From IMG/VR virus record IMGVR_UViG_2526164651_000009: a stretch of 10,461 bases of DNA; one strand, written 5' to 3'. A program made the translations under genes and the position numbers. The notes under the pieces are model-generated. The model had not been told where the DNA came from and made no database searches. It was given only the letters and a program-made list of their open reading frames with translations. Origin of the DNA: a virus (taxonomy: Duplodnaviria; Heunggongvirae; Uroviricota; Caudoviricetes). Shown here one piece after another: positions 1 to 10,461 of this stretch (its first letter is position 1; each line of letters begins with the position of its first letter).

Positions 1-453
1 TTAGCAAAAATTAGCATCCTCCCCACCAGCCACCCGGTATACCTCTGATAAATCACGAACATTTTTCATGTCTGCTTTCCCGGACGTTTCCATCAGTGCG
101 TTAATATCATCCCCCGTATAGCGTGATTGCGCGACGATACCAGCCAGAGAGATAACCATAGCCCGGCATACCTGGTCTATCAGACGTAACCTGGTGTCAT
201 CATTCGAGAGGGTGTAAGACTTAACCTCAGCCACATTCCGTGGATAGTTGGCGTGCCATACCGCGACAGCTCCACATTCATCAACATCGCCGCTAAGGTA
301 GGTTTTTGCCACTCGGTTATTACCCGATAACGCAATTTCTACCTCCTGTATGCCGAAAAACCATGCGGCTATCGCATGACCTGCTTCATGTATTGCAAGA
401 TGTCTGGGCCAGCGATAGCTGCCGAACTCAATAATGATGGGGTGCGTACTCAT
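1..453 (-). CDS. Small putative zinc metallopeptidase-like protein (HEAGH motif), about 150 aa; function unknown
   Basis: ORF 1..531 on the minus strand with TAA at 1-3. Preferred start is the ATG at 453-451, preceded by GAGAGGGAAG and lying 10 nt downstream of the ssb stop; the track start at 531 would overlap ssb by 68 nt. The protein contains HEAGHAIAAWFFG, an HExxH zincin-type motif resembling the FtsH/M41 signature. Family assignment is by motif only. Confidence 0.5.
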   Translation of the reverse strand: MSTHPIIIEFGSYRWPRHLAIHEAGHAIAAWFFGIQEVEIALSGNNRVAKTYLSGDVDECGAVAVWHANYPRNVAEVKSYTLSNDDTRLRLIDQVCRAMVISLAGIVAQSRYTGDDINALMETSGKADMKNVRDLSEVYRVAGGEDANFC

Positions 454-463
454 ATCTTCCCTC

Positions 464-898
464 TCAGAATGGCGTTTCATCGTCGAATGGTGGGCGTTGG
501 TCGTATTCATCACGGGATGGCTGCTGCGCACGTCTCAGCGCGTCCGTTGCCTGTCCCTGCTGTCCTGCCTTCCCGCCGGGGCGTACCGTTCTGGCGCTGA
601 TCACACTGTCTGCAATCACCTGATACCCGGTCTGTATGCCACCGTCCTGCCCTGTCCACTGGTTAACCTGCATATTGCCCGCCACGCTAACAAGGTCGCC
701 TTTCTGGTGCTTCGCCAGCGCATCGGCCTGCTTCCCAAAAGCAATAACGCCCAGCCAGAAGGTTGACTCTCCCGCCTCTGCCGCATTACAGGGGAGCGAC
801 ACCGCCAGCCGCGCCATAGCCATGTTGTTACCGTTCGTTGTGGTGCGGGTCTGGGGATCTGCCACCAGCCGCCCGTATGCTGAAATTTGTGCTGTCAT
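464..898 (-). CDS. ssb: Single-stranded DNA-binding protein (SSB), 144 aa
   Basis: ATG at 898-896 preceded by GAGGGG about 6 nt upstream. OB-fold-like N-terminal region (FWLGVIAFGKQADALAKHQKGDLVSVAGNMQVNQWTGQDGG), a Gly/Gln-rich linker and the acidic C-terminal tail PPFDDETPF, which matches the conserved SSB tail (DDDIPF in E. coli SSB). Confidence 0.85.
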   Translation of the reverse strand: MTAQISAYGRLVADPQTRTTTNGNNMAMARLAVSLPCNAAEAGESTFWLGVIAFGKQADALAKHQKGDLVSVAGNMQVNQWTGQDGGIQTGYQVIADSVISARTVRPGGKAGQQGQATDALRRAQQPSRDEYDQRPPFDDETPF

Positions 899-986
899 TT
901 TCCCCTCACTGGATTATTAGTTTTGCTAATGACGATTTCTTAATGTGGGACACCTGCCGATTTTTTTTCATAGTAAGCAAAAATAG

Positions 987-1246
987 TGTTGTCTCTGTTG
1001 TCTTTGTTGTCTCACGGCTCTACAGGCCGCGCCACGTCTGGGTTTTGCTGAGACAACATTTGCAATTTCGTGTTGTCTCACCCGGCATAAATGTTGTCTC
1101 ACTGCCTGCCAGACTAAAAACACACTTTCGCCCTGTTGTCTCAAAATGGCTAAATGTTGTCTCGGTGTTGTCTCAGAAATTAAAATAAAATCCTTATAAA
1201 TCAATCTCAATTACAAATTGAGACAACAAAGACAACCGAGACAACA
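987..1246. repeat. Iteron array, probable replication origin: about 12 copies of the 9-mer TGTTGTCTC in both orientations plus an AT-rich tract
   Basis: Direct copies at 987-995, 996-1004 (TGTTGTCTT variant), 1005-1013, 1071-1079, 1092-1100, 1134-1142, 1155-1163 and 1166-1174. Inverted copies (GAGACAACA) at 1050-1058, 1220-1228 and 1238-1246, with a degenerate one at 1229-1237. Several direct copies are spaced 21 or 42 bp apart. An AT-rich tract lies at about 1175-1219. The array sits immediately downstream of the primase-helicase gene. Confidence 0.8.
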
Positions 1247-1271
1247 CTAAAACTACGCATGTGAAGAAATA

Positions 1272-4031
1272 TTATTTTTCTGGCTGGCTGCTTTCCTCCG
1301 CCATGAAATTGAGTACATAGACGCGAATCTGTCGCCCATCCTCCCTTACTCGCCCCTGATAGCCTCGCCCGCTCGTTGGTGGTGTAAGCATTCCTGCATT
1401 CTTTAGAACTTCGGCAAACTGTTTGGTATTGAAGCCCTTTGCAATCTCCTGCTCAAACGCTGCCGGGAAGGTGTAGAAAATTATCGGGTCGCCGTCGTGG
1501 TTCCCCTTCTTCCTGTACCCGGCTAAATCACGGATGGGTAAATCGCGCGGGTCATAACCCAGCGGCGCGAATCGACTCAGCCCATAGGCATTCAAAAACG
1601 CCTCCGTCTGCTCAATAATCTGCTGGTGCTCTTTGTTCCCCGTGCCGAACTCACGCAACCACGCATTGTAGCTGTGCTGTATCGCATCACGGCACGTTTG
1701 ATCATCCCAGCCAGTAACCACGCCACCCAGCAGTAAAGCAGCCTCCAGAATGGCGAACCTTGCCCCTACACGGTGAACCTGTTCCCCATAGTCGGCAGGA
1801 ATAAGACTGCGCCAGCGAGCTTCACAGTCACGAACGGTATCAATGGCCTGCTGCTGGTGGCCTGCAAGCCATCTGATCCACTCCCGCCCGGCAGCGCCGT
1901 GATTGCTCTGCCACGCGGATTTTAATGCGTCTGCATGGTCTTTCCCTGTCTGGTGCTCATGAAAGCGCACCGCCTTACTTAACGGGATATTCAGCAGGCG
2001 CACCAGTTGCCCCGCTTTTGTCTTGCGTCCTGCGGTGGCAATGAACGTTTCTAAATCCATTTCCCCGGTGCTGATTGCCACGGTACGCCAGCGTTTTAGA
2101 TCCCGGTTTCCGCCTTCTTTCGCGCCCTGCAATTTCCCCACGCCGTTAAACAGGGCATAGGCAGACTGAGAAACGCTTATCGGGTCTGCGCCCTGTCCGA
2201 CTTCATCCAGCGGCATCAGTCCGTCATTGTGGGCGGCGGCCTCGTTTATCAGCCCCAGCGCCGTCCCGTACCACGTCAGGCGCAAGGCATCAGGGTTCCC
2301 GTATAGACTGCTAGCCACGTTCTGCGTGGTTGTTTTCCCGGCGCTCGATTGCTCATAAAAATGAATCCCGAATCCGTCACGCTCTGCCACCCCGATTAAT
2401 GGCGCTGCCAGTGCTGCGGCAATGCCTGTCATCATCGCGTAGTTGCCGTATGCCAGCCGCGCGACACTGTTGCGCCAGCTTTCCGGCGTTCCTGCTACGG
2501 TATACCCGGCAGCGGCTGAACTGCGCCCGCTGAACAAAACAGGCCGCTCAGGTGTGCCGATGATTTCCCCGTCCGGCATGATGTATGCCCCGCACTGCCA
2601 GCCTGTAGCATGAGCAACGCGCCACAATTCACGCGAGCCGCTCCGCTGTAGCCAGTCGGCAAGGATCGCCCGTAAACTGCTTTTGGTCGTGACGTTAACC
2701 CCACCAGCTTTCAGGGTGCGCCAGCCTTCACGCTCGCCAATATCAGCCAGCGGGATAGCCGCTGTTGTCGGTATGCCTGCACCGAATGCCAGCCATGAGA
2801 TAATAAGATACTGATCTTTGTCGTCGCGTCCCGTGCCGATAACCTCCAACGGGGAACATAACCAGCTTTCAGCGTTGACGATCTCCCCGCTTTCCTTGTC
2901 CACCTTCGGCGTTACCCAGAAAACGCCATCTTTGCGGCTCTCAATGTGGGGTTTTAGTGGATCTTTCTCTGGATGGTCAGTTTTACCGCCCTCAATGGCT
3001 TGCAATCGCGGTTTCACGGCTTCCCCTTGAATCTGGTACATCGAATCGTTAAACGCAGCCGTAGCGACTTCCAGCCCGTTTTGCTGGCGGTAGTCGTCCC
3101 AGTCGGCTTTGTAGTCTGTCGGCGGCAGCGCCACCCAGCCAGCCACGGATAAGGCGGCTTTCTCTGCGGCATCTTTGCCCGTGTTCGCCTGGTCGTCCTG
3201 CTGGTGGTCGTTATCTGCGGCAATGATAATTTGCGACTGCGGGTGTTTCCGGCGCATTACTCCGGCAACGTGGATCAGGTTCCCGGCGTCAATTGCCGCC
3301 ACTGTAAGCGCGTCCGGGCGCATCAGGTGGACTGATAAAGTGGTTGCCAGCCCCTCGGCAATAATCACCGCCTGCGGCTGTTCCGGTGCGTTAACGGCGT
3401 GATATGCCCCGCGCTTTGCTGAACCTGTCAGGAGTCGCTTCTCTCCCTGCGGTGTAATGGTTTGCGCTGCTGCCACTGCGCCGGATTCGTCCACCAGCTC
3501 CAGCAATAACGAACCATCCGGCATTACCGGATATTTAAACCCGGTCAGCCCTTTTGATTGCAGGTAATCAGATTCTCCCTGTGTGGCACTCTGGCGCATT
3601 CCGGCATACAGACGGGCAAACGTAGCCCTTCGCTGCTCTGCATCCTCTGCTGCCTGTTTCTGGCGCTCCTGCTCACGCTGCTGGCGGTCAGCTTCCAGTT
3701 GCTCTCTTCTATGGCTCGCTGCCACCGGGTCGGTTTCCGCTGCCCGGTAATCAATACCCAGCACGTCAGCGGCAAGCTGTGCCGCCTCCGTAGTGTCGCA
3801 GTTGTTAACCCGCTTGATTAAATCCAGCCCGTCACCAGCGCCACACTGGTTGCAGATAAAGCTACCGCGCCCGTTGTCGTCGAATCTGAAACGGTCTTTT
3901 CCACCACATGCAGGGCATGGAGAATGGCGGCGCGATGAATCAGGCACGTCGATAGACAATCCAGCCAGCACATAAGGCCAGCGCCCGGCGGCGGCACTGG
4001 TCACTTCGCGGATAAGGTCGATATTACGCAT
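1272..4031 (-). CDS. Primase-helicase replication protein (N-terminal zinc ribbon, TOPRIM domain, C-terminal P-loop NTPase), 919 aa
   Basis: ATG at 4031-4029 with AGGGGG about 6 nt upstream. Zinc-ribbon motif CPACGG...FICNQCG near the N-terminus; TOPRIM-like IIAEG and IIIAADNDHQQDD (DxD); Walker A-like EQSSAGKTT and Walker B-like LMPLDEVG in the C-terminal half. The start overlaps the stop of the upstream gene in the 8-nt sequence ATGCGTAA. Confidence 0.85.
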   Translation of the reverse strand: MRNIDLIREVTSAAAGRWPYVLAGLSIDVPDSSRRHSPCPACGGKDRFRFDDNGRGSFICNQCGAGDGLDLIKRVNNCDTTEAAQLAADVLGIDYRAAETDPVAASHRREQLEADRQQREQERQKQAAEDAEQRRATFARLYAGMRQSATQGESDYLQSKGLTGFKYPVMPDGSLLLELVDESGAVAAAQTITPQGEKRLLTGSAKRGAYHAVNAPEQPQAVIIAEGLATTLSVHLMRPDALTVAAIDAGNLIHVAGVMRRKHPQSQIIIAADNDHQQDDQANTGKDAAEKAALSVAGWVALPPTDYKADWDDYRQQNGLEVATAAFNDSMYQIQGEAVKPRLQAIEGGKTDHPEKDPLKPHIESRKDGVFWVTPKVDKESGEIVNAESWLCSPLEVIGTGRDDKDQYLIISWLAFGAGIPTTAAIPLADIGEREGWRTLKAGGVNVTTKSSLRAILADWLQRSGSRELWRVAHATGWQCGAYIMPDGEIIGTPERPVLFSGRSSAAAGYTVAGTPESWRNSVARLAYGNYAMMTGIAAALAAPLIGVAERDGFGIHFYEQSSAGKTTTQNVASSLYGNPDALRLTWYGTALGLINEAAAHNDGLMPLDEVGQGADPISVSQSAYALFNGVGKLQGAKEGGNRDLKRWRTVAISTGEMDLETFIATAGRKTKAGQLVRLLNIPLSKAVRFHEHQTGKDHADALKSAWQSNHGAAGREWIRWLAGHQQQAIDTVRDCEARWRSLIPADYGEQVHRVGARFAILEAALLLGGVVTGWDDQTCRDAIQHSYNAWLREFGTGNKEHQQIIEQTEAFLNAYGLSRFAPLGYDPRDLPIRDLAGYRKKGNHDGDPIIFYTFPAAFEQEIAKGFNTKQFAEVLKNAGMLTPPTSGRGYQGRVREDGRQIRVYVLNFMAEESSQPEK

Positions 4032-4365
4032 GGTTGCCCCCTGCCACGGTCGCGCCCATGTCTTTAACCATGCTTTGCCATATCTCGCGCCCGACGTCAG
4101 TCAATCCGTCCTTAGTGACGCAACGCTCAAGAAGCTCGACCCCCACGGTTTCCCACTGCGGGTAGGATACTTTCATGGCTGCCAGTGTGTAGCTATCGAT
4201 CAGGCTGCGAACGCCTTTTACTCCATTGACGATTTCCACACGGACGGCGAGGCCGTCCGCATCAACCATGAAATAGTCCCCGCCGCTGGTGGAGGTAATG
4301 TGGTTATACAGTGCCGATGCATACTTATTCGCCAGCGCATTCAGTCGGAAATTTTTAGTAATCAT
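4024..4365 (-). CDS. Hypothetical protein, 113 aa
   Basis: ATG at 4365-4363 preceded by GAGGGGG. The stop overlaps the primase start (ATGCGTAA). No recognisable motifs. Confidence 0.65.
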   Translation of the reverse strand: MITKNFRLNALANKYASALYNHITSTSGGDYFMVDADGLAVRVEIVNGVKGVRSLIDSYTLAAMKVSYPQWETVGVELLERCVTKDGLTDVGREIWQSMVKDMGATVAGGNHA

Positions 4366-4374
4366 GTCACCCCC

Positions 4375-5001
4375 TCAGTGCGCCAGCGGCATTTCAGGCC
4401 AGCCGTTTTCATCCAGTTCAGCTATAAAGCTGTTGTGAAGTTCAGCAAGCGTTTCACGCCCGAACGGGGTCAACTCGCCGCGCTCCGTGTCGATCATGGC
4501 CTGATAAAAAACAATGGCGTTCGCTGTTCCCTGCTCAATGCCGTAGCGCTCAACCATTGCGCCCTCCATGTTGTTAGCCATCGCCAGACGTTCCGCGAAC
4601 GGGTAAACCACAATCCCCGCCGTGCCATTGGAGTAAATCGCCACCTGCGATGAAGTGTCGTCAGACTCAGTTACCGTGGTTGTGCCGTTTTCGCGCTTCA
4701 TCTCAGAAATGAACGTCGCAGCAATCAGCCAGCGCCACATAGTGACGTTATGCTGCGCGGTGAAGTCGAACCAGCCACGCGCCCCGTCATCAGCAACGGC
4801 AAAATGAATGGCGTATCCGATATCTGGCTTATCGTCGTACTCTCCGGCGTCAAGGCCGTTCACGGCGCTCTCGTAGCTGATAAGAGCAACCTGCTCATAT
4901 CCCCCGGCATCATTGCGGGTCATGATATTGACGCCGTGCGGTGTGGCTTCGGCGTGTAATAAGTCGGCATTTCCCGATTTAATGGTCGGTGCGTTGCTCA
5001 T
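4375..5001 (-). CDS. Hypothetical protein, 208 aa
   Basis: ATG at 5001-4999 preceded by GGAGGG about 7 nt upstream. The start overlaps the stop of the upstream gene in ATGA. No recognisable motifs. Confidence 0.7.
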   Translation of the reverse strand: MSNAPTIKSGNADLLHAEATPHGVNIMTRNDAGGYEQVALISYESAVNGLDAGEYDDKPDIGYAIHFAVADDGARGWFDFTAQHNVTMWRWLIAATFISEMKRENGTTTVTESDDTSSQVAIYSNGTAGIVVYPFAERLAMANNMEGAMVERYGIEQGTANAIVFYQAMIDTERGELTPFGRETLAELHNSFIAELDENGWPEMPLAH

Positions 5002-5261
5002 GCGCTGCCCTCCGCATCAATTCTGGCTATATCGACAATCATCAGGACTTTACTCAGCCAGCAATACGCGATGGCTGCTTGCTCAACTTCGAGGAGTGGT
5101 AATAAATCGGTCATAACGTGAGCCAGCCCATTGCGGGCGCGGGTCATGCGTTCTGCTGTTCGGTCTGCCAGCGTAAAATCATCCGGGCATGCTTCTTTAC
5201 GAGATAGCATCGATTCGGCTTCCAGATCTGCCGGGTGGCGATAGATGGTATTTATGTTCAT
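4998..5261 (-). CDS. Hypothetical protein, 87 aa
   Basis: ATG at 5261-5259 preceded by AGGGAGGG. ATGA overlap with the upstream gene stop and again with the downstream gene start. Confidence 0.6.
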   Translation of the reverse strand: MNINTIYRHPADLEAESMLSRKEACPDDFTLADRTAERMTRARNGLAHVMTDLLPLLEVEQAAIAYCWLSKVLMIVDIARIDAEGSA

Positions 5262-5572
5262 TTGCCCGCCCTCCCTTTGGCTTCTTTTTCACTGATTGAG
5301 CGCAAGAATGCGGCGTTTGCAGCGCTATCGTTCAGCGCCCGCGCAACTTCTCCGATATGTCCCAGCATTGCGCCTAATCTGTACATATCAGCCTTAGCGC
5401 TTTCCTCCGGGTAGCCATCGCTACCAGCCGCCCAGAACATGAGGCTACCAATGGCACTTACGCCCAGCATTAAATCATCCACGGCATCACTGGCGCGGCT
5501 CTCAATTCCGTTCAGATCATCAGGTGTACAACCATCAAATTTGCAGGACACTAAATCGTCATACATGCTCAT
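5258..5572 (-). CDS. Hypothetical acidic protein, 104 aa
   Basis: ATG at 5572-5570 preceded by GAGGTGG. ATGA overlaps at both ends. Confidence 0.6.
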   Translation of the reverse strand: MSMYDDLVSCKFDGCTPDDLNGIESRASDAVDDLMLGVSAIGSLMFWAAGSDGYPEESAKADMYRLGAMLGHIGEVARALNDSAANAAFLRSISEKEAKGRAGK

Positions 5573-5748
5573 GCCGCCACCTCACGAACGCGGGTAATCT
5601 GGATGTGGGAAAGGCGTTCATTTCTGGCCTGATTTAGCGCCTCAGCTTTGGCGCTGATCGCGCTGCGGGCGTCAACGATATAAACGAACTCGACTAATTC
5701 GCCGCTCTGGGCGGTGGCGCATCCTGCAACACGGAAGTAATTAAGCAT
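5569..5748 (-). CDS. Hypothetical small protein, 59 aa
   Basis: Preferred start is the ATG at 5748-5746 with AGGGGG about 6 nt upstream; the track start at 5778 is a TTG and would overlap the Icd-like gene by 38 nt. The start overlaps the Icd-like stop in ATGCTTAA. Confidence 0.5.
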   Translation of the reverse strand: MLNYFRVAGCATAQSGELVEFVYIVDARSAISAKAEALNQARNERLSHIQITRVREVAA

Positions 5749-5932
5749 GTGCGCCCCCTGTGCGAATACGTCCGGCAAAAAAGCAAACGTGATCCCGCGC
5801 CAGAATGCGGCGGGCTTCCTGCTCAGTCTCTGCGGCGATATGGTGAATTTTGGCGGTAATTGTCGGCATATCGCGGCGAACTGCTGCGATAATCCAGATA
5901 AATTGCGGTTTTTGGGTAGGGGTAGTAGCCAT
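5741..5932 (-). CDS. Icd-like small protein (host cell-division inhibitor Icd family, tentative), 63 aa
   Basis: C-terminal 63 codons of track ORF 5741..6493. ATG at 5932-5930 is preceded by a strong SD, AAGGAGG, 8 nt upstream; the longer ORF has no such signal and contains a terminator-like hairpin. The family name is from recalled resemblance to Icd-like proteins of P4-like prophages, not from a search. Confidence 0.6.
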   Translation of the reverse strand: MATTPTQKPQFIWIIAAVRRDMPTITAKIHHIAAETEQEARRILARDHVCFFAGRIRTGGAHA

Positions 5933-5940
5933 TATGGCAG

Positions 5941-6035
5941 CCTCCTTTGTGTTTAAGGAGTCACCGCCTGACGTCTCAATGTCATGATTGGCGGTGACGT
6001 CAGCGGGGTTGAGACTACCGGACACAAAGGAAACC
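5941..6035 (-). ncRNA. Candidate C4-type antisense RNA or structured regulatory leader upstream of the Icd-like gene
   Basis: A perfect 10-nt inverted repeat: 6022-6031 (ACACAAAGGA on plus) is the reverse complement of 5943-5952 (TCCTTTGTGT), and the latter covers most of the SD of the Icd-like gene. Between them is a 9-bp stem (5960-5968 GTCACCGCC with 5990-5998 GGCGGTGAC). A local 6-bp hairpin (5942-5947 with 5955-5960) also includes the SD. Exact RNA ends cannot be determined from sequence. Confidence 0.3.
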
Positions 6036-6121
6036 GGCCTATCCGAAGATAGCCCCACTGACGCCACCATAGATACAGTACGGGCAAGGCCGCTGATTTG
6101 ATGTGCGTGGTGATCGGACAC

Positions 6122-6144
6122 AAAAAAAGACGCTTTCGGCGTCT
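6122..6144 (-). terminator. Candidate rho-independent terminator for the upstream alpA-side operon
   Basis: On the minus strand: stem AGACGC, loop CGAAA, stem GCGUCU, followed by six U (plus-strand A-run at 6122-6127). The stem is short (6 bp) but GC-rich. Confidence 0.35.
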
Positions 6145-6282
6145 GTGTCGCCCTTAGTGTGTTCGGGGTCTCAATCCCGGTTGCTGATTTTGCAGCAACG
6201 CTTGGACTATAACAGCTTTTCTCTGCTAGGTGGTCATACCAGATAAAACCGTAACCCTTTAAGAGTTTTCCCTGTGCACGGC

Positions 6283-6435
6283 TCACCATCTTTTTGTTGA
6301 GGGTAAGCGCCTCGCGTACTGGTAACGGAACTCCGGGCGCTGCGGTATCAATATCAGGTTTTGTAAGGTTGCAGATGTCAACTTTTGACAACATGCCAGC
6401 CAGATTAAAGGCTTCTTTCTGGGCGGCAGGTTCAT
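6283..6435 (-). CDS. Possible small basic ORF, 50 aa (MNLPPRKKPLIWLACCQK...), uncertain
   Basis: ATG at 6435-6433 overlaps the TGA of the upstream DUF4222-like gene (ATGA coupling); TGA at 6285-6283. No independent SD and the composition is unusual. Not in the supplied track because it is under 60 aa. Confidence 0.15.
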   Translation of the reverse strand: MNLPPRKKPLIWLACCQKLTSATLQNLILIPQRPEFRYQYARRLPSTKRW

Positions 6436-6614
6436 TCAGTATCACGGCGCACCTCCACGAACTCATTAACGAATCTCTCCAAAGGCTGAACACATGGCGA
6501 CTGATAGCCCTCGCGGTAAAAGGTCACTCGGTTATGCTCGACGCGCTGTACGGTCACTACAGCCCCGTGACTGTCCTTGTAACGGCTTCCCGGCATCGGA
6601 TTATGGTTACGCAT
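6432..6614 (-). CDS. Small protein, DUF4222-like (tentative), 60 aa
   Basis: ATG at 6614-6612 with GGAGG about 7 nt upstream. The start overlaps the upstream stop in ATGCGTAA. The sequence pattern (GAVVTVQRV...VTFYREGYQSPCVQPLERF) resembles small DUF4222 proteins of P4-like prophages, from recall only. Confidence 0.55.
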   Translation of the reverse strand: MRNHNPMPGSRYKDSHGAVVTVQRVEHNRVTFYREGYQSPCVQPLERFVNEFVEVRRDTE

Positions 6615-7440
6615 GGTTTACCTCCAGACGCTTAGCGAGCCAGCGTTGCGACAGGCGGGTGAGTTCTCCTTTGCGCTGCTCATATTCCATGCCCATATCA
6701 ATTAACGTGATATTGGTGCTTTCGAGATAGGCGAGGTGTTCAAGCTGTGCTGCGTTCATGCTGTCCCGTGGTTCGCCAGTAATGCCATTTGCCTGCGCCC
6801 ACTGCTTCGCCGTCATGCCACCCAGCACGATACGGGCGATCATGTTGCTCTCGTTGCTGTAGTGGCGCTGCTGCGTCGTTTTACCCAGCTCGGCACGGGC
6901 CATATTCAGCGCATCGCACATTGGCTTAAAATTGTTTGCGGCACTGATACGGGCTTTTAGCTGGCGACGATAGCGGGCGGCGATTTCAGGCACGCTACGC
7001 TGTAATTCTTCCTCGCACTGGATGAAATAACGGCGGATAGCGCGGCCCTGTTCGGTGCGTTCGACCATCGCCAGTTCTTTCGCCATTCCGACACTTAACA
7101 GATAGTCTTTGCCGGGTCTGCCAGACTGTTTAATCTTGCTGTAAGCCACGCCATTCGGGCTTTTCCCCAGATTTGGGGAAATTGTTTTATGGACTGAGTA
7201 ATCGTGCCCAATGGTGAAGTCATATTCAGAGATGCGATCAGTGATCCATGTAGAGAAGTCTTTTCCCACGCCCAACGCTTTGTGTAACGCTTTGGCGCTA
7301 ACAATATTGGTTTCACGCCCACCGATATGACCAGGAATAACCGGGACAATTGTGGCAAATTCATTACCGTTAATTGTGCCCTGATAGGCGTTCAGATGAG
7401 GGGCGGCCTCAGAAATTAATCTGCTTTTTTCGATGTTCAT
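6607..7440 (-). CDS. Phage antirepressor-like regulatory protein (AntA-type N-terminal domain, tentative), 277 aa
   Basis: ATG at 7440-7438 with GGAG about 8 nt upstream. N-terminal region SAKALHKALGVGKDFSTWITDRI resembles the AntA/ORF6N-type antirepressor signature (F-S/N-D/T-W-I..RI). The C-terminal half is unassigned. Confidence 0.5.
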   Translation of the reverse strand: MNIEKSRLISEAAPHLNAYQGTINGNEFATIVPVIPGHIGGRETNIVSAKALHKALGVGKDFSTWITDRISEYDFTIGHDYSVHKTISPNLGKSPNGVAYSKIKQSGRPGKDYLLSVGMAKELAMVERTEQGRAIRRYFIQCEEELQRSVPEIAARYRRQLKARISAANNFKPMCDALNMARAELGKTTQQRHYSNESNMIARIVLGGMTAKQWAQANGITGEPRDSMNAAQLEHLAYLESTNITLIDMGMEYEQRKGELTRLSQRWLAKRLEVNHA

Positions 7441-7452
7441 TTTCAGTCTCCG

Positions 7453-7884
7453 TTAGGCGGCGGTGAGATTGTCCGGGTATAGATTGAGAATGTCGGCAAT
7501 TTCAGGCTGAGAAAGTCCCTGATAGCCGCCAGCGTCGGCGTTATGGTTCACAAGCCGAATAACTTTTAGAACGTCACCGCGCCCGGTAAAGCGATAGCGT
7601 AAATGTGACCCTATCCCGTCGGGGTTCTTTTCGTCTATACGCTCAAGCTGAATATCAAGCCTGCGCTCTAACTCGCTGGCGTAGTTCCTTCCAGACGAAA
7701 GGCGGCAATAACGCAGAATATCGTTTTCTGTCCATCCCTCTATACCAGTACGCAGCATATAGACGCGGGCGCGGTGTTTCTTTGGGGTACGCCTAGGTAC
7801 TTGTACCGGGCTGGTGGTCGGCGTAATATCAGACGTGCGAATATCTGAGTTAGCCGCCTGTAATGGGCGGTTTTTCTTTTTCAT
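7453..7884 (-). CDS. Hypothetical basic protein, 143 aa
   Basis: ATG at 7884-7882 overlaps the alpA stop by 1 nt (TGATG); GGTGG lies upstream. The track start at 7887 is a TTG. Basic, proline/threonine-rich N-terminus; no recognised domain. Confidence 0.6.
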   Translation of the reverse strand: MKKKNRPLQAANSDIRTSDITPTTSPVQVPRRTPKKHRARVYMLRTGIEGWTENDILRYCRLSSGRNYASELERRLDIQLERIDEKNPDGIGSHLRYRFTGRGDVLKVIRLVNHNADAGGYQGLSQPEIADILNLYPDNLTAA

Positions 7885-8093
7885 CAAGCCACCTTTCCCC
7901 GACGTTCTGCCAGCCAGTTGTTAATCTCTACCGCATCAAAGGCGGTAATCTTCTCGCCCAGCTTTACCGGGCGCGGCAGTCGCTTATCTCGAACCCAACG
8001 ATCAATGGTTGCTACATGGACGCCCAGCGCTTGAGCCAGGCGGAAGCGGCGAATATAGCCGCTTGTGGGAAGTGGTGATTGGTGTTCTGTCAT
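7884..8093 (-). CDS. alpA: AlpA-family phage transcriptional regulator (helix-turn-helix), 69 aa
   Basis: Preferred start is the ATG at 8093-8091 with AAGGAG about 9 nt upstream; the track start at 8117 has no SD. Motifs RLAQALGVHVATIDRWV...PRPVKLG...EINNWL match the AlpA pattern. It is the first gene after the int-cargo block, as is typical for P4-like and PICI elements. Confidence 0.8.
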   Translation of the reverse strand: MTEHQSPLPTSGYIRRFRLAQALGVHVATIDRWVRDKRLPRPVKLGEKITAFDAVEINNWLAERRGKVA

Positions 8094-8194
8094 ATGTCCC
8101 GTAACTCCTTTCTGCATCGTTACGGGAATACTGAATAAAAAACCAGTGTTTATCTATACAGAATCAAAATATTAAAAATCCGAATAGATTCAGA
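8094..8194 (-). promoter_or_regulatory. AT-rich leader and probable promoter region of the alpA operon, with a hairpin around the alpA SD
   Basis: A 9-bp inverted repeat, 8097-8105 (TCCCGTAAC) with 8119-8127 (GTTACGGGA), has a 13-nt loop containing the SD AAGGAG. Further upstream are AT-rich repeats of AATCTGAA/TTCAGATT (8189-8196 and 8221-8228). No confident -35/-10 hexamers could be assigned by eye. Confidence 0.4.
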
Positions 8195-9046
8195 TTATTG
8201 AAAATCTATCAATTTCAGAAAATCTGAAAACCTCATGTTTTTTATGTGGGGGTTATCTGCGTAGTATTTTTTTAATTCCACTCGACTAAGCACATCTCTC
8301 ACAGACTCTGCAAATGGTTTCACAGTGTCACGGATGTGAGCGCCACCCTTAACCGTTCCGTCAGGTAGTGGCTCAGGGAACAGTAGACGCGCATAAAGCT
8401 CATTGGACACCATAATGCCGTTAATCCTCGCCCATCTTGATATATCAAGATATGGGATTATCCGGTAATGATGGATCTTGGCAATTGTTGACGCCCCGAA
8501 CCTCTTTTTTTCTTTGACGGCACTTTCAGGTATACCGGTCTGAACCCTCCACCTTTTTAGCAATGTTTTAAATCCAGCTATCATTTCGTCATCGTCCATC
8601 AAATCAAGCCCGATATCGACAAATATCCCCGTTTTACCTTCTGACCTTGGATCATCGGTATCATATAGCATCGACTGGTTGTATATATCGCAATTTTCTA
8701 TGTCTGCTCTTGCTTCAATTCTGCCATTATCCGTTATCGTCATACGCCCATCACTCAGGCAGCTGTTAACAAAAGCGCAAATCATCGAAAAAGGTAGAGG
8801 CATAATTCCTCTGTCATCAAAGGATAGACTACCCTCCGGCAAATCCTCATCCCAGAGGGTAACATCCGTTATAAGGGGGAATGGAATAATTGAGAAAACC
8901 TCATCTTTTCGTAACTCAAGACTATCAGAGTGATAACTCATCATGAACATCTCGCTTACCACATGGTTGACACTTAGATCCAACACGTAGTCGTACCTGT
9001 CCAGTGAAAACCATTCCATCACATCGCCGTATTTAGCCCGTTTCAT
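8195..9046 (-). CDS. Hypothetical protein, 283 aa; AT-richer cargo gene between integrase and alpA, function unknown (candidate accessory or defence gene)
   Basis: ATG at 9046-9044 with AAGGTGG about 7 nt upstream; TAA at 8197-8195. The gene looks AT-richer than its neighbours (not computed). No Walker, HExxH or nuclease motif was recognised by eye. Confidence 0.75.
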   Translation of the reverse strand: MKRAKYGDVMEWFSLDRYDYVLDLSVNHVVSEMFMMSYHSDSLELRKDEVFSIIPFPLITDVTLWDEDLPEGSLSFDDRGIMPLPFSMICAFVNSCLSDGRMTITDNGRIEARADIENCDIYNQSMLYDTDDPRSEGKTGIFVDIGLDLMDDDEMIAGFKTLLKRWRVQTGIPESAVKEKKRFGASTIAKIHHYRIIPYLDISRWARINGIMVSNELYARLLFPEPLPDGTVKGGAHIRDTVKPFAESVRDVLSRVELKKYYADNPHIKNMRFSDFLKLIDFQ

Positions 9047-9141
9047 AACGCCACCTTTTACGCTGCGCCTTATTTTGTGATTGAGCCAGGCGGTAAGGCT
9101 TCCCGCTTTTCGCCCCGTCGGGCTAGACTCAATCTATTCAG

Positions 9142-10401
9142 TTAGTTCGCCCTTCTGAGAGGCGTCACGTTGTAATCTTCGCCCTTCTCCAGAGCCACCA
9201 GCAAGCCCGCCCACTGTGTTAACGCAGCCCGTCGCTCGTCAAAGTATTGGTGACGGTTATAAATCCCCTCTACGCCCTTAATGCGATGATTGAGGCATCG
9301 TTCCGCCACTACCGGATCAACGCCCAGCGCTGCTAAATGGGTGCGGGCCGTGCGTCGGAAGTCGTGAATCGTGAAATTAGGCACATCCGGTATTTCGGCG
9401 CGAACCTTAGCCAGTGCTACGGGCAGGGTGCTTTCCTGAATATGGGGGATCATGCGGTTTTGCATCTTTCTGGCTGGCAGTACCCATGCGCTGTTGCATG
9501 AGAACGTTTTAAGCTCTCTCAGCCATTCGACGGCTGGGGAAGGTAGAGGTATATCAATAGGGTCTCCGTTTTTGCTGCGTTCTTCCGGCAAATGCCATAC
9601 CGCACCATCTAAATCAAACTCTTCCCATCGTGCGGCGCATAATTCCATTTTGCGGACGCATAACGCTAACAGTAATTTGAACGTGATTTCGTTCTGGCGA
9701 CTGAATCCCTTAGCCGTGCGCATGGCTTTGAATAGCTGGATTAACTCATCGCGGGTTAACCAGCGGTCACGGGCAACTTCTTTCCCTCCGGCGTCTGCCA
9801 CCTCAAAGGCTGAACAGGGGTTAATCTCTAGCGCGTGCCGTTTGATTCCGTAGTCGAATATGCGGCGCGTCCATCTCAGCACGTCCGTTGCTATGGTCGA
9901 CGCTCCACGGTCAACAATACCTTTCAGCATGTCATCGATATGGCGCGGTTTCACGTCCTCTACCTTCATGCTGCCAATGCAGGGGTTTATATCTTTGTCG
10001 ATACGGCGGCGGAGTATATCGGGGTGCTTCCAGCGCGGGAGGATCTGACGCTCAAAGTATTCAGCGGCAAGCTCTGAAACGCGCATAGCGTTCTTCTCTG
10101 CTTCCATCTTCGCCAGTGCTTCGGTTTTGCGCTTCTGCTTCTCTCCTGCAACGTCATAGCCCAGCGCAACGCGAGCCGATAGCTCTTTGGCTGTCTCTCT
10201 GGCCTTTGATAGTGATAGCTCGCTATACGAACCAATTAGCATGGCGCGGGACTTCCCTGCGAGTTTATAGCGGAATCTCCATGTGGGGGTTTTGTCGGCT
10301 TCACGGTAACGTAGGTATAAACCGTTACCGTCTGCCCGCCCCTCGAATCGCTCTCCGCTCTTAATCCATGCGCGGATCTGCATGTCTGTTAGTTTTGGCA
10401 T
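9142..10401 (-). CDS. int: P4-type tyrosine integrase (site-specific recombinase), about 419 aa
   Basis: Preferred start is the ATG at 10401-10399 (MPKLTDMQIRA..., matching the usual P4-type integrase N-terminus); the ORF remains open to the window edge at 10461. The C-terminal catalytic region carries HDFRRT and the active-site tyrosine context GIYNRHQY. Confidence 0.9.
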   Translation of the reverse strand: MPKLTDMQIRAWIKSGERFEGRADGNGLYLRYREADKTPTWRFRYKLAGKSRAMLIGSYSELSLSKARETAKELSARVALGYDVAGEKQKRKTEALAKMEAEKNAMRVSELAAEYFERQILPRWKHPDILRRRIDKDINPCIGSMKVEDVKPRHIDDMLKGIVDRGASTIATDVLRWTRRIFDYGIKRHALEINPCSAFEVADAGGKEVARDRWLTRDELIQLFKAMRTAKGFSRQNEITFKLLLALCVRKMELCAARWEEFDLDGAVWHLPEERSKNGDPIDIPLPSPAVEWLRELKTFSCNSAWVLPARKMQNRMIPHIQESTLPVALAKVRAEIPDVPNFTIHDFRRTARTHLAALGVDPVVAERCLNHRIKGVEGIYNRHQYFDERRAALTQWAGLLVALEKGEDYNVTPLRRAN

Positions 10402-10461
10402 TTTGCGAATATCCAAACTTTGAATAGGGGGTGTACCCAAAGCAATGTACCCAAACCTCAT

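Follow-up and report, generated by a model that had tools for sequence, protein, structure and literature searches.

The locus raises the question of what a dense set of 9-bp repeats is doing directly behind a primase-helicase gene. The repeats lie at positions 987-1246 of the window, as we call the whole 10,461-bp stretch of DNA analyzed, which is cut at both ends of the element it comes from. A first-pass annotation of the letters had called this interval an iteron-type origin. The best explanation overall, which we regard as very likely together with the initiation mechanism proposed below, is that 987-1246 is the replication origin of a Gram-negative satellite of the phage-inducible chromosomal island (PICI) type. 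What leads to this reading is the match in position and layout to the published PICI and SaPI origins, conservation across homologous loci, and covariation of the repeats with the initiator.

The repeat array and its AT-rich tract

The repeat unit TGTTGTCTC is present in 10 exact and 2 degenerate copies, in both orientations and all confined to 987-1246, which bears out the earlier count of about 12. Allowing up to 1 mismatch, the 10,461-bp window has 11 matches, every one within 987-1246 and none elsewhere, against a shuffled-window expectation of 1.84 ± 1.32; 11 matches are reached in 0 of 200 shuffles. The twelfth iteron, GGTTGTCTT, has 2 mismatches and occupies 1229-1237 on the − strand. 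Eight iterons are on the + strand, starting at 987, 996, 1005, 1071, 1092, 1134, 1155, and 1166, and four are on the − strand, at 1050-1058, 1220-1228, 1229-1237, and 1238-1246. Within both outer triplets, the copies are contiguous at 9-bp spacing. The inner iterons are 21 bp apart at 1050-1071-1092, 42 bp at 1092-1134, 21 bp at 1134-1155, and 11 bp at 1155-1166, so the proposed phasing of 21 or 42 bp, two or four helical turns, is found where the copies are not contiguous, the last interval apart. The stop codon of the primase-helicase gene, pri-rep, is at 1272-1274, leaving 25 nt to the nearest iteron; the array does adjoin the gene, as had been stated.

The outer triplets are the arms of a 31-nt inverted repeat (984-1014 and 1219-1249, 97% complementary) that brackets the array. 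It was considered as a cruciform or terminator and rejected, its arms being 204 nt apart and simply consisting of oppositely oriented iteron triplets. A known RNA was rejected as well: positions 700-1500, scanned against Rfam with E allowed up to 1, gave only chance matches to eukaryotic snoRNAs and miRNAs, far below threshold.

Two convergent iteron sets, 1134/1155/1166 on the + strand and 1220/1229/1238 on the − strand, face each other across positions 1175-1219, a tract with a GC fraction of about 0.27. When 40-bp stretches are ranked by nearest-neighbor energy, the least stable in the window start at 1174-1181, with dG = −40.3 kcal/mol compared with a whole-window mean of −56.7 kcal/mol (sd 4.2) for stretches of that length. 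Loci L002 and L004 likewise have their least stable DNA at the equivalent AT-rich gap. The first-pass annotation had recognized an AT-rich tract but described it as flanking the repeats; it is strongly AT-rich and the least stable DNA, but its place is inside the array, between the 1166 iteron and the gene-proximal triplet. Table 1 collects the coordinates.

Table 1. Features of the array, its initiator gene, and the surrounding element (a dot marks features listed without strand)
Feature	Position	Strand	Remarks
150-aa ORF	1-453	-	directly after ssb
ssb	464-898	-	Pfam SSB; TIGR00621; directly downstream of origin
Exchangeable cassette: origin plus helicase/C-terminal coding (aa 351-919)	899-2981	.	
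Distal iteron triplet TGTTGTCTC, TGTTGTCTT, TGTTGTCTC	987-1013	+	9-bp spacing; one inverted-repeat arm
GC-rich spacer with box AAAACCCAG..TGGCGCGGCCTG (gene strand)	1014-1049	.	box conserved in classes A and B
Lone iteron, opposite orientation	1050-1058	-	21-bp register with next two
Two iterons (1071-1079, 1092-1100), 21 bp apart	1071-1100	+	
Three iterons (1134, 1155, 1166) facing the AT-rich tract	1134-1174	+	spacing 21 and 11 bp
AT-rich tract, putative DNA-unwinding element, with box TTGATTTATAAGG (gene strand)	1175-1219	.	
Gene-proximal triplet TGTTGTCTC, GGTTGTCTT, TGTTGTCTC	1220-1246	-	other inverted-repeat arm
pri-rep, 919-aa primase-helicase	1272-4031	-	Pfam, PDB, NCBIfam, PHROG
Predicted winged-helix C-terminal domain, aa 838-909, strand-strand-helix-helix-hairpin	1305-1520	-	
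Codons for aa 893-897 (G-R-V-R-E), first hairpin strand	1341-1355	-	
Small ORFs	between Ash-family ORF and 1272-4031	-	
Ash-family ORF	5741-6493	-	
DUF4222 protein	6432-6614	-	
AntA-like protein	6607-7440	-	
AlpA	7884-8117	-	
DUF6387 protein	8195-9046	-	
Tyrosine integrase	9142-10461	-	

The element carrying the array

All substantial ORFs of the window are on the − strand, and the combination of integrase, AlpA, and Pri-Rep under one direction of transcription is that of Gram-negative PICIs. Structural genes are absent within the window, the far end of the element being outside it. Gram-negative PICIs are elements of about 10-15 kb with attachment sites of their own; the window is cut at both ends, and E. 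coli islands that are 91-95% identical to it are about 12 kb long and sit between yicC and dinD, the chromosomal site that these relatives share with the PICI EcCIRM13514 (Table S1 of Fillol-Salom et al. 2018, PMC6092414). The gene order in both EcCIRM13514 and EcCICFT073 is primase, a gap of 290-490 bp, then ssb and perC. The array therefore very probably belongs to a Gram-negative PICI, a phage satellite. The window's ssb probably provides the element with the single-strand binding protein that its replication uses. In the RefSeq relatives, the array carries no feature annotation; the description given here assigns a probable origin and its cognate initiator to a satellite island hitherto without annotation.

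Whether the array might instead belong to a common phage replication module was considered and rejected, because a protein search of a phage collection finds the helicase with its C-terminal domain in no more than 13 phage records, of which most are small or fragmentary. At the DNA level, the same kind of search against deposited phage genomes finds similarity to one piece of the window only, the 49-nt stretch 7133-7181 in the antA-like gene, which matches 38 phages, Stx-converting and related ones, at 96% identity.

Layout across homologous loci

The comparison set is 60 loci from many Enterobacterales genera encoding Pri-Rep relatives of 49-93% identity, plus E. coli alleles. A locus is scored as having an array if, in the 500 nt that follow the stop codon, an 8-mer is repeated to 4 or more copies; 57 loci have sequence of that length available. 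By this measure, 53 of the 57 have a repeat array at that place; among 717 control windows taken from these loci, 17 do. The first iteron is found 23-30 nt beyond the stop, and a common spacing pattern is kept by 8 iteron classes. Counting from the stop on the gene strand, the conserved register is a forward triplet at about +26, +35, and +44, then the AT-rich gap of about 45 bp, then reverse iterons at about +99, +110, and +131. In about half of the loci, there are extra iterons at +173, +194, and +214 (forward), with a reverse triplet at +260, +269, and +278.

Translated to the window, the 1134/1155/1166 iterons and the proximal triplet form a 3+3 core present in nearly all relatives, and the six distal iterons (987-1100) are those missing in about half of them. 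Hence, we regard the 3+3 core as the origin proper, with the distal six probably accessory, in cooperativity or copy control.

The register is kept, and the words written into it change. The iteron TGTTGTCTC defines class A, to which the window belongs; TGTTGGTTC(A) defines class B, the commonest; and the other groups have xGGGTTA, GTCGGTTC, GTCGGTTA, CTTGTCCC, and more. When 12 full-length origins are aligned, the iteron columns are 97-99% identical within a class, whereas the spacers are 60-78% identical, with indels. Conservation of the iterons while the spacers vary in this way indicates selection on the repeats themselves and a noncoding region. Two ORFs do overlap the array, at 838-1188 (+) and 968-1210 (−), but the 1-, 2-, and 10-nt spacer indels in relatives rule them out as coding.

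Some signals other than iterons are kept across classes A and B. These are TTGATTTATAAGG at about 1190-1203 in the AT-rich tract, CTGGCWGG at about 1103-1110, AAAACCCAG..TGGCGCGGCCTG at about 1017-1046, and the 25-nt linker from the stop codon to the first iteron (1249-1266). Such boxes could be binding sites for host factors or other proteins. Matches to DnaA boxes are at chance level, with no good one within the origin.

Pri-Rep and its predicted C-terminal fold

By Pfam matching, Pri-Rep has a Zn ribbon (aa 34-69), a Toprim domain (aa 222-319), and a DUF927 SF3-type helicase (aa 367-645), followed by a C-terminal domain. The helicase part matches PDB ID: 8tch, the Rep of SaPIbov1, with E = 5 × 10−8, and also 5dgk, the Cch of SCCmec. 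Other assignments of the protein are Cch1 by NCBIfam and DNA primase by PHROG.

The alignment of the C-terminal domain, used as a sequence profile, has 0 matches in the PDB at E up to 10. An AlphaFold model of the helicase and C-terminal domain together (aa 355-919) was discarded at pLDDT 57. The model of aa 790-919, made from 82 sequences, has a pLDDT of 79.9 in 1 of 5 models, the sole confident one, and exhibits two strands, two helices, and a beta-hairpin. The best structural match to it is SaPIbov1 Rep, followed at lower rank by a long run of winged-helix domains including ORC2, MCM8, and MarR; Foldseek gives the same top matches with weak E-values (6 × 10−3). The model fits the assignment of the Pri-Rep C-terminal domain as a predicted winged-helix origin-binding domain. 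With it, the predicted architecture is that of a PICI or SaPI initiator, a self-loading SF3-type helicase with a C-terminal winged helix and a fused primase.

Iteron-initiator covariation and cassette exchange

The first-pass annotation had suggested comparing iterons across related elements for replicon specificity. In such a comparison, iteron class tracks an initiator patch at aa 893-897. Over all 52 of the 52 loci compared, a given variant of the hairpin motif goes with a single iteron class. Between the class A (n = 7) and class B (n = 35) proteins, just 5 of 919 alignment columns fully separate the classes, and 4 of the 5 are aa 893, 894, 895, and 897, reading G-R-V-x-E in class A and R-K-S-x-I in class B. 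In the predicted model, residues 893-897 map to the first strand of the hairpin. On going from class B to class A, RKSPRI in the patch gives way to GRV-RE, and all 12 iterons change at 2 nt, from GGTT to GTCT; the spacers diverge no more between classes A and B than within class B. This covariation of motif and iteron is a correlation confounded by physical linkage; the motif codons are only about 90 nt from the first iteron, within reach of one recombination tract, so linkage could produce much of it.

A larger exchange is exhibited by the island of E. coli ET979 (L066), which is 86-96% identical to the window over 10-898 and 2982-10461 and has no homology to it over 899-2981. The replacement block encodes a P4-family helicase with TATCCCTAC iterons and contains no copy of TGTTGTCT. 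From comparisons of the window with L066 and L003, the cassette breakpoints are exactly the ssb start codon and the primase/helicase junction (aa ~350). The ET979 swap implies that the integrase, AlpA, AntA, Ash, SSB, and the primase domain are not the specificity partner of the repeats. The island family accordingly has at least 2 unrelated initiator/origin cassettes on one backbone. A smaller exchange is seen in L010, L011, and L048, close relatives with class B iterons whose DNA is 80-90% identical for most of the gene's length; identity falls to 63-75% in the final ~120 codons and in the origin. L018, with class A iterons, has the reverse identity pattern. In these sequence patterns, the C-terminal domain with the origin, and the helicase and C-terminal domain with the origin, behave as exchange units. 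The two exchange patterns and the class-separating columns point to the C-terminal end of Pri-Rep as the part that would read the repeats.

The swap bears on two further uses that short repeats can have. One is that the array consists mainly of operators, bound by Pri-Rep or another element regulator, for a promoter of ssb and the genes downstream of it. There is a weak sigma-70-like match (TTGAGA-17-TATTTT) on the − strand at 1210-1182, in the AT-rich tract and directed toward ssb, and no terminator-like site is found on that strand between pri-rep and ssb. The −35 hexamer is, however, unconserved in relatives, and pri-rep is followed by the array also in loci that lack ssb or have it split off by an ORF (L002, L005, L003, L004). 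Moreover, all of the other regulators keep 86-96% identity between L066 and the window although the iterons are wholly different, and 12 sites spread across 260 bp around a central unwinding element would be excessive for an operator. We consider operators as the main role to be highly improbable, although operator and origin functions could coexist.

The other use is as a platform for packaging (cos/pac), for partition (a parS-like centromere), or for integrase arm binding, since cosB, centromeres, and att arms also have short repeats in both orientations. This reading has the least to recommend it and we find it scarcely credible: lambda-type cosN matches are at chance level only, par or terminase genes are not found in the window, and the array is about 8 kb from int and away from the ends of the element. 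The repeats co-vary with the Pri-Rep C-terminal domain, and in L066 int is kept at 96% identity while the iterons change.

Returning to the origin and its initiator, the hairpin patch (aa ~891-899) and the 9-bp iteron might amount to a simple, evolvable recognition code, an idea we put forward tentatively and would sooner doubt than rely on. If such a code were true, the C-terminal domain with the origin would be a swappable specificity module, generating mutually orthogonal replicons, that is, incompatibility groups, among satellites with hosts and helpers in common. Competition between co-resident islands could then be the driver, or phage-encoded nucleases directed at origins.

Comparison with known origins

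The published PICI origin has two iteron sets of opposite orientation around an AT-rich region immediately 3′ of pri-rep, and a pri-rep-ori fragment of EcCICFT073 is sufficient for plasmid replication (PMC6092414). The Rep helicase of SaPIs loads itself; with a C-terminal winged helix, it binds 6-12 iterons that surround a central AT-rich region (PMC9371898). The window resembles the Gram-negative PICIs in having int, alpA, pri-rep, ori, and ssb/perC in one direction with the origin immediately 3′ of pri-rep. It has the convergent iterons around an AT-rich region that both descriptions call for, and iterons cognate to the initiator insofar as the linkage-confounded correlation above is a guide.

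The EcCICFT073 initiator, that of the experimentally validated E. coli PICI origin, is P4-alpha-type in both its helicase and its C-terminal domain, with 40% identity to alpha, and no similarity is detectable between it and the Pri-Rep of the window. Functional precedent for the DUF927-type Pri-Rep and its origin consequently comes from the staphylococcal islands only. The iterons differ accordingly, being a TCTACC core in EcCICFT073, TGTTCACC in EcCIRM13514, and TGTTGTCTC with the DUF927-type helicase in the window. The SaPIs (SaPIbov1, SaPI1, SaPI5; PMC9371898) have iterons of 5-6 nt as against 9 nt here, where the host is Gram-negative. Unlike theirs, the AT-rich tract of the window is off-center, with 3 iterons to one side and 9 to the other, and the outer triplets form the 31-nt inverted repeat. 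By analogy with EcCICFT073 and the SaPIs, we infer that the element would replicate autonomously after induction.

Phage P4 is the next system to compare, and its iterons were checked in the P4 genome record. The Zn-ribbon/Toprim primase of P4 alpha is homologous to that of Pri-Rep, 34% identical over aa 7-331 with E = 4 × 10−43, and P4 also has iterons of 8-9 nt starting TGTT, in both orientations, with an array right after the primase-helicase gene. In contrast, the DUF927 helicase and the DNA-binding domain of the window are unalignable with alpha, and P4 needs two separated iteron regions, ori and crr, versus the single 260-bp array here. The window has 0 copies of TGTTCACC, and the P4 genes sid, psu, and delta are undetected in it. 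It has neither the alpha-type (P4-family, D5-like) helicase and DNA-binding domain nor the two-region TGTTCACC iterons of a P4-like replicon. Of the PICIs themselves, EcCIRM13514 (L067, 8555-9045) has 9 copies of TGTTCACC, identical to the P4 type I iteron, after a P4-alpha-like primase, and EcCICFT073 (L069, 6997-7284) has an array of 11 TCTACC-core iterons likewise placed; PICI and P4 replication modules therefore overlap.

The P4 record is also the source of an alternative for the window. The array immediately 3′ of alpha (4636-6969) is crr, at 4291-4590, and the P4 origin is at 9086-9809, 4.5 kb away. The array of the window might by that precedent be a crr-like cis-acting enhancer or copy-control site, working by handcuffing or by titration of Pri-Rep, with synthesis starting elsewhere. 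About half of the relatives do without the six distal iterons, so part of the array may be accessory. But no further iteron copy occurs in the 10.4-kb window, leaving no second Pri-Rep site at which the origin could lie; the DNA that is least stable in the window is between convergent iterons; and a PICI rep gene with its neighboring array suffices for plasmid replication (PMC6092414). We judge a crr-like role for the whole array to be improbable.

The word classic in the first-pass annotation needs a qualification, which concerns plasmids. The origin of the window has in common with Rep_3-type plasmid origins (pPS10, R6K, RK2, F, P1) a winged-helix initiator, here a predicted one, and repeats next to an AT-rich unwinding element. 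Iteron plasmids have direct repeats of 17-22 bp and DnaA boxes, and load the host DnaB. Unlike these, the sites in the window are 9 bp and in both orientations, and the initiator itself is helicase and primase. Pfam finds no Rep_3 domain, and the locus as a whole does not have the makeup of a Rep_3-type iteron plasmid. It is an iteron origin, then, as first described, but of the satellite type, with a self-loading SF3 helicase-primase, 9-bp iterons, and no DnaA boxes, and not of the iteron-plasmid type. A literature search with the iteron strings returned primer and miRNA coincidences only, and TGTTCACC with P4 returned nothing useful.

Proposed initiation mechanism

That the origin is served by the adjacent primase-helicase, as had been supposed, is supported computationally by layout, conservation, covariation, the cassette swap, and the predicted winged helix. 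In the mechanism we propose, induction would lead to AlpA-driven transcription and so to production of the 919-aa Pri-Rep. Its winged-helix C-terminal domains would bind the 9-bp iterons, with specificity coming from the hairpin strand at about aa 893-897. The core would be the two convergent sets of three iterons flanking the 45-bp tract 1175-1219, where the DNA would melt and two helicase hexamers would self-load, needing neither DnaA nor a separate loader. Primers would come from the N-terminal Zn-ribbon/Toprim part, the host polymerase would extend them, and the SSB of the element (464-898) would coat the single strands.

This kind of origin is already known, and its description here leaves the existing picture of PICI replication unchanged. 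The layout conserved at ~55 Enterobacterales loci, together with a 5-residue patch that predicts the iterons, may be an aid to designing orthogonal mini-replicons or to predicting incompatibility among satellites.

Other observations

The second least stable DNA of the window, at 8149-8190, falls in the intergenic space upstream of alpA (7884-8117, − strand). Probably it is the promoter region of that gene and controls induction. The 150-aa ORF at 1-453 (− strand) has an FtsH-like zinc-protease motif, HEAGHAIA, and no family in Pfam, NCBIfam, or PHROG; the position after ssb is usually taken by a PerC regulator in E. coli relatives. The island at locus L011, in an assembly labeled Chryseobacterium sp. 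18061, is Enterobacter-like, and its Pri-Rep has 84% identity to that of the window; the assembly is probably contaminated or mislabeled. In L002 (E. coli M15) and L005 (E. coli GN02100), pri-rep and the origin are followed by P22-like DNA-ejection genes with no ssb or perC, which indicates that the replication module occurs in a different kind of element as well.
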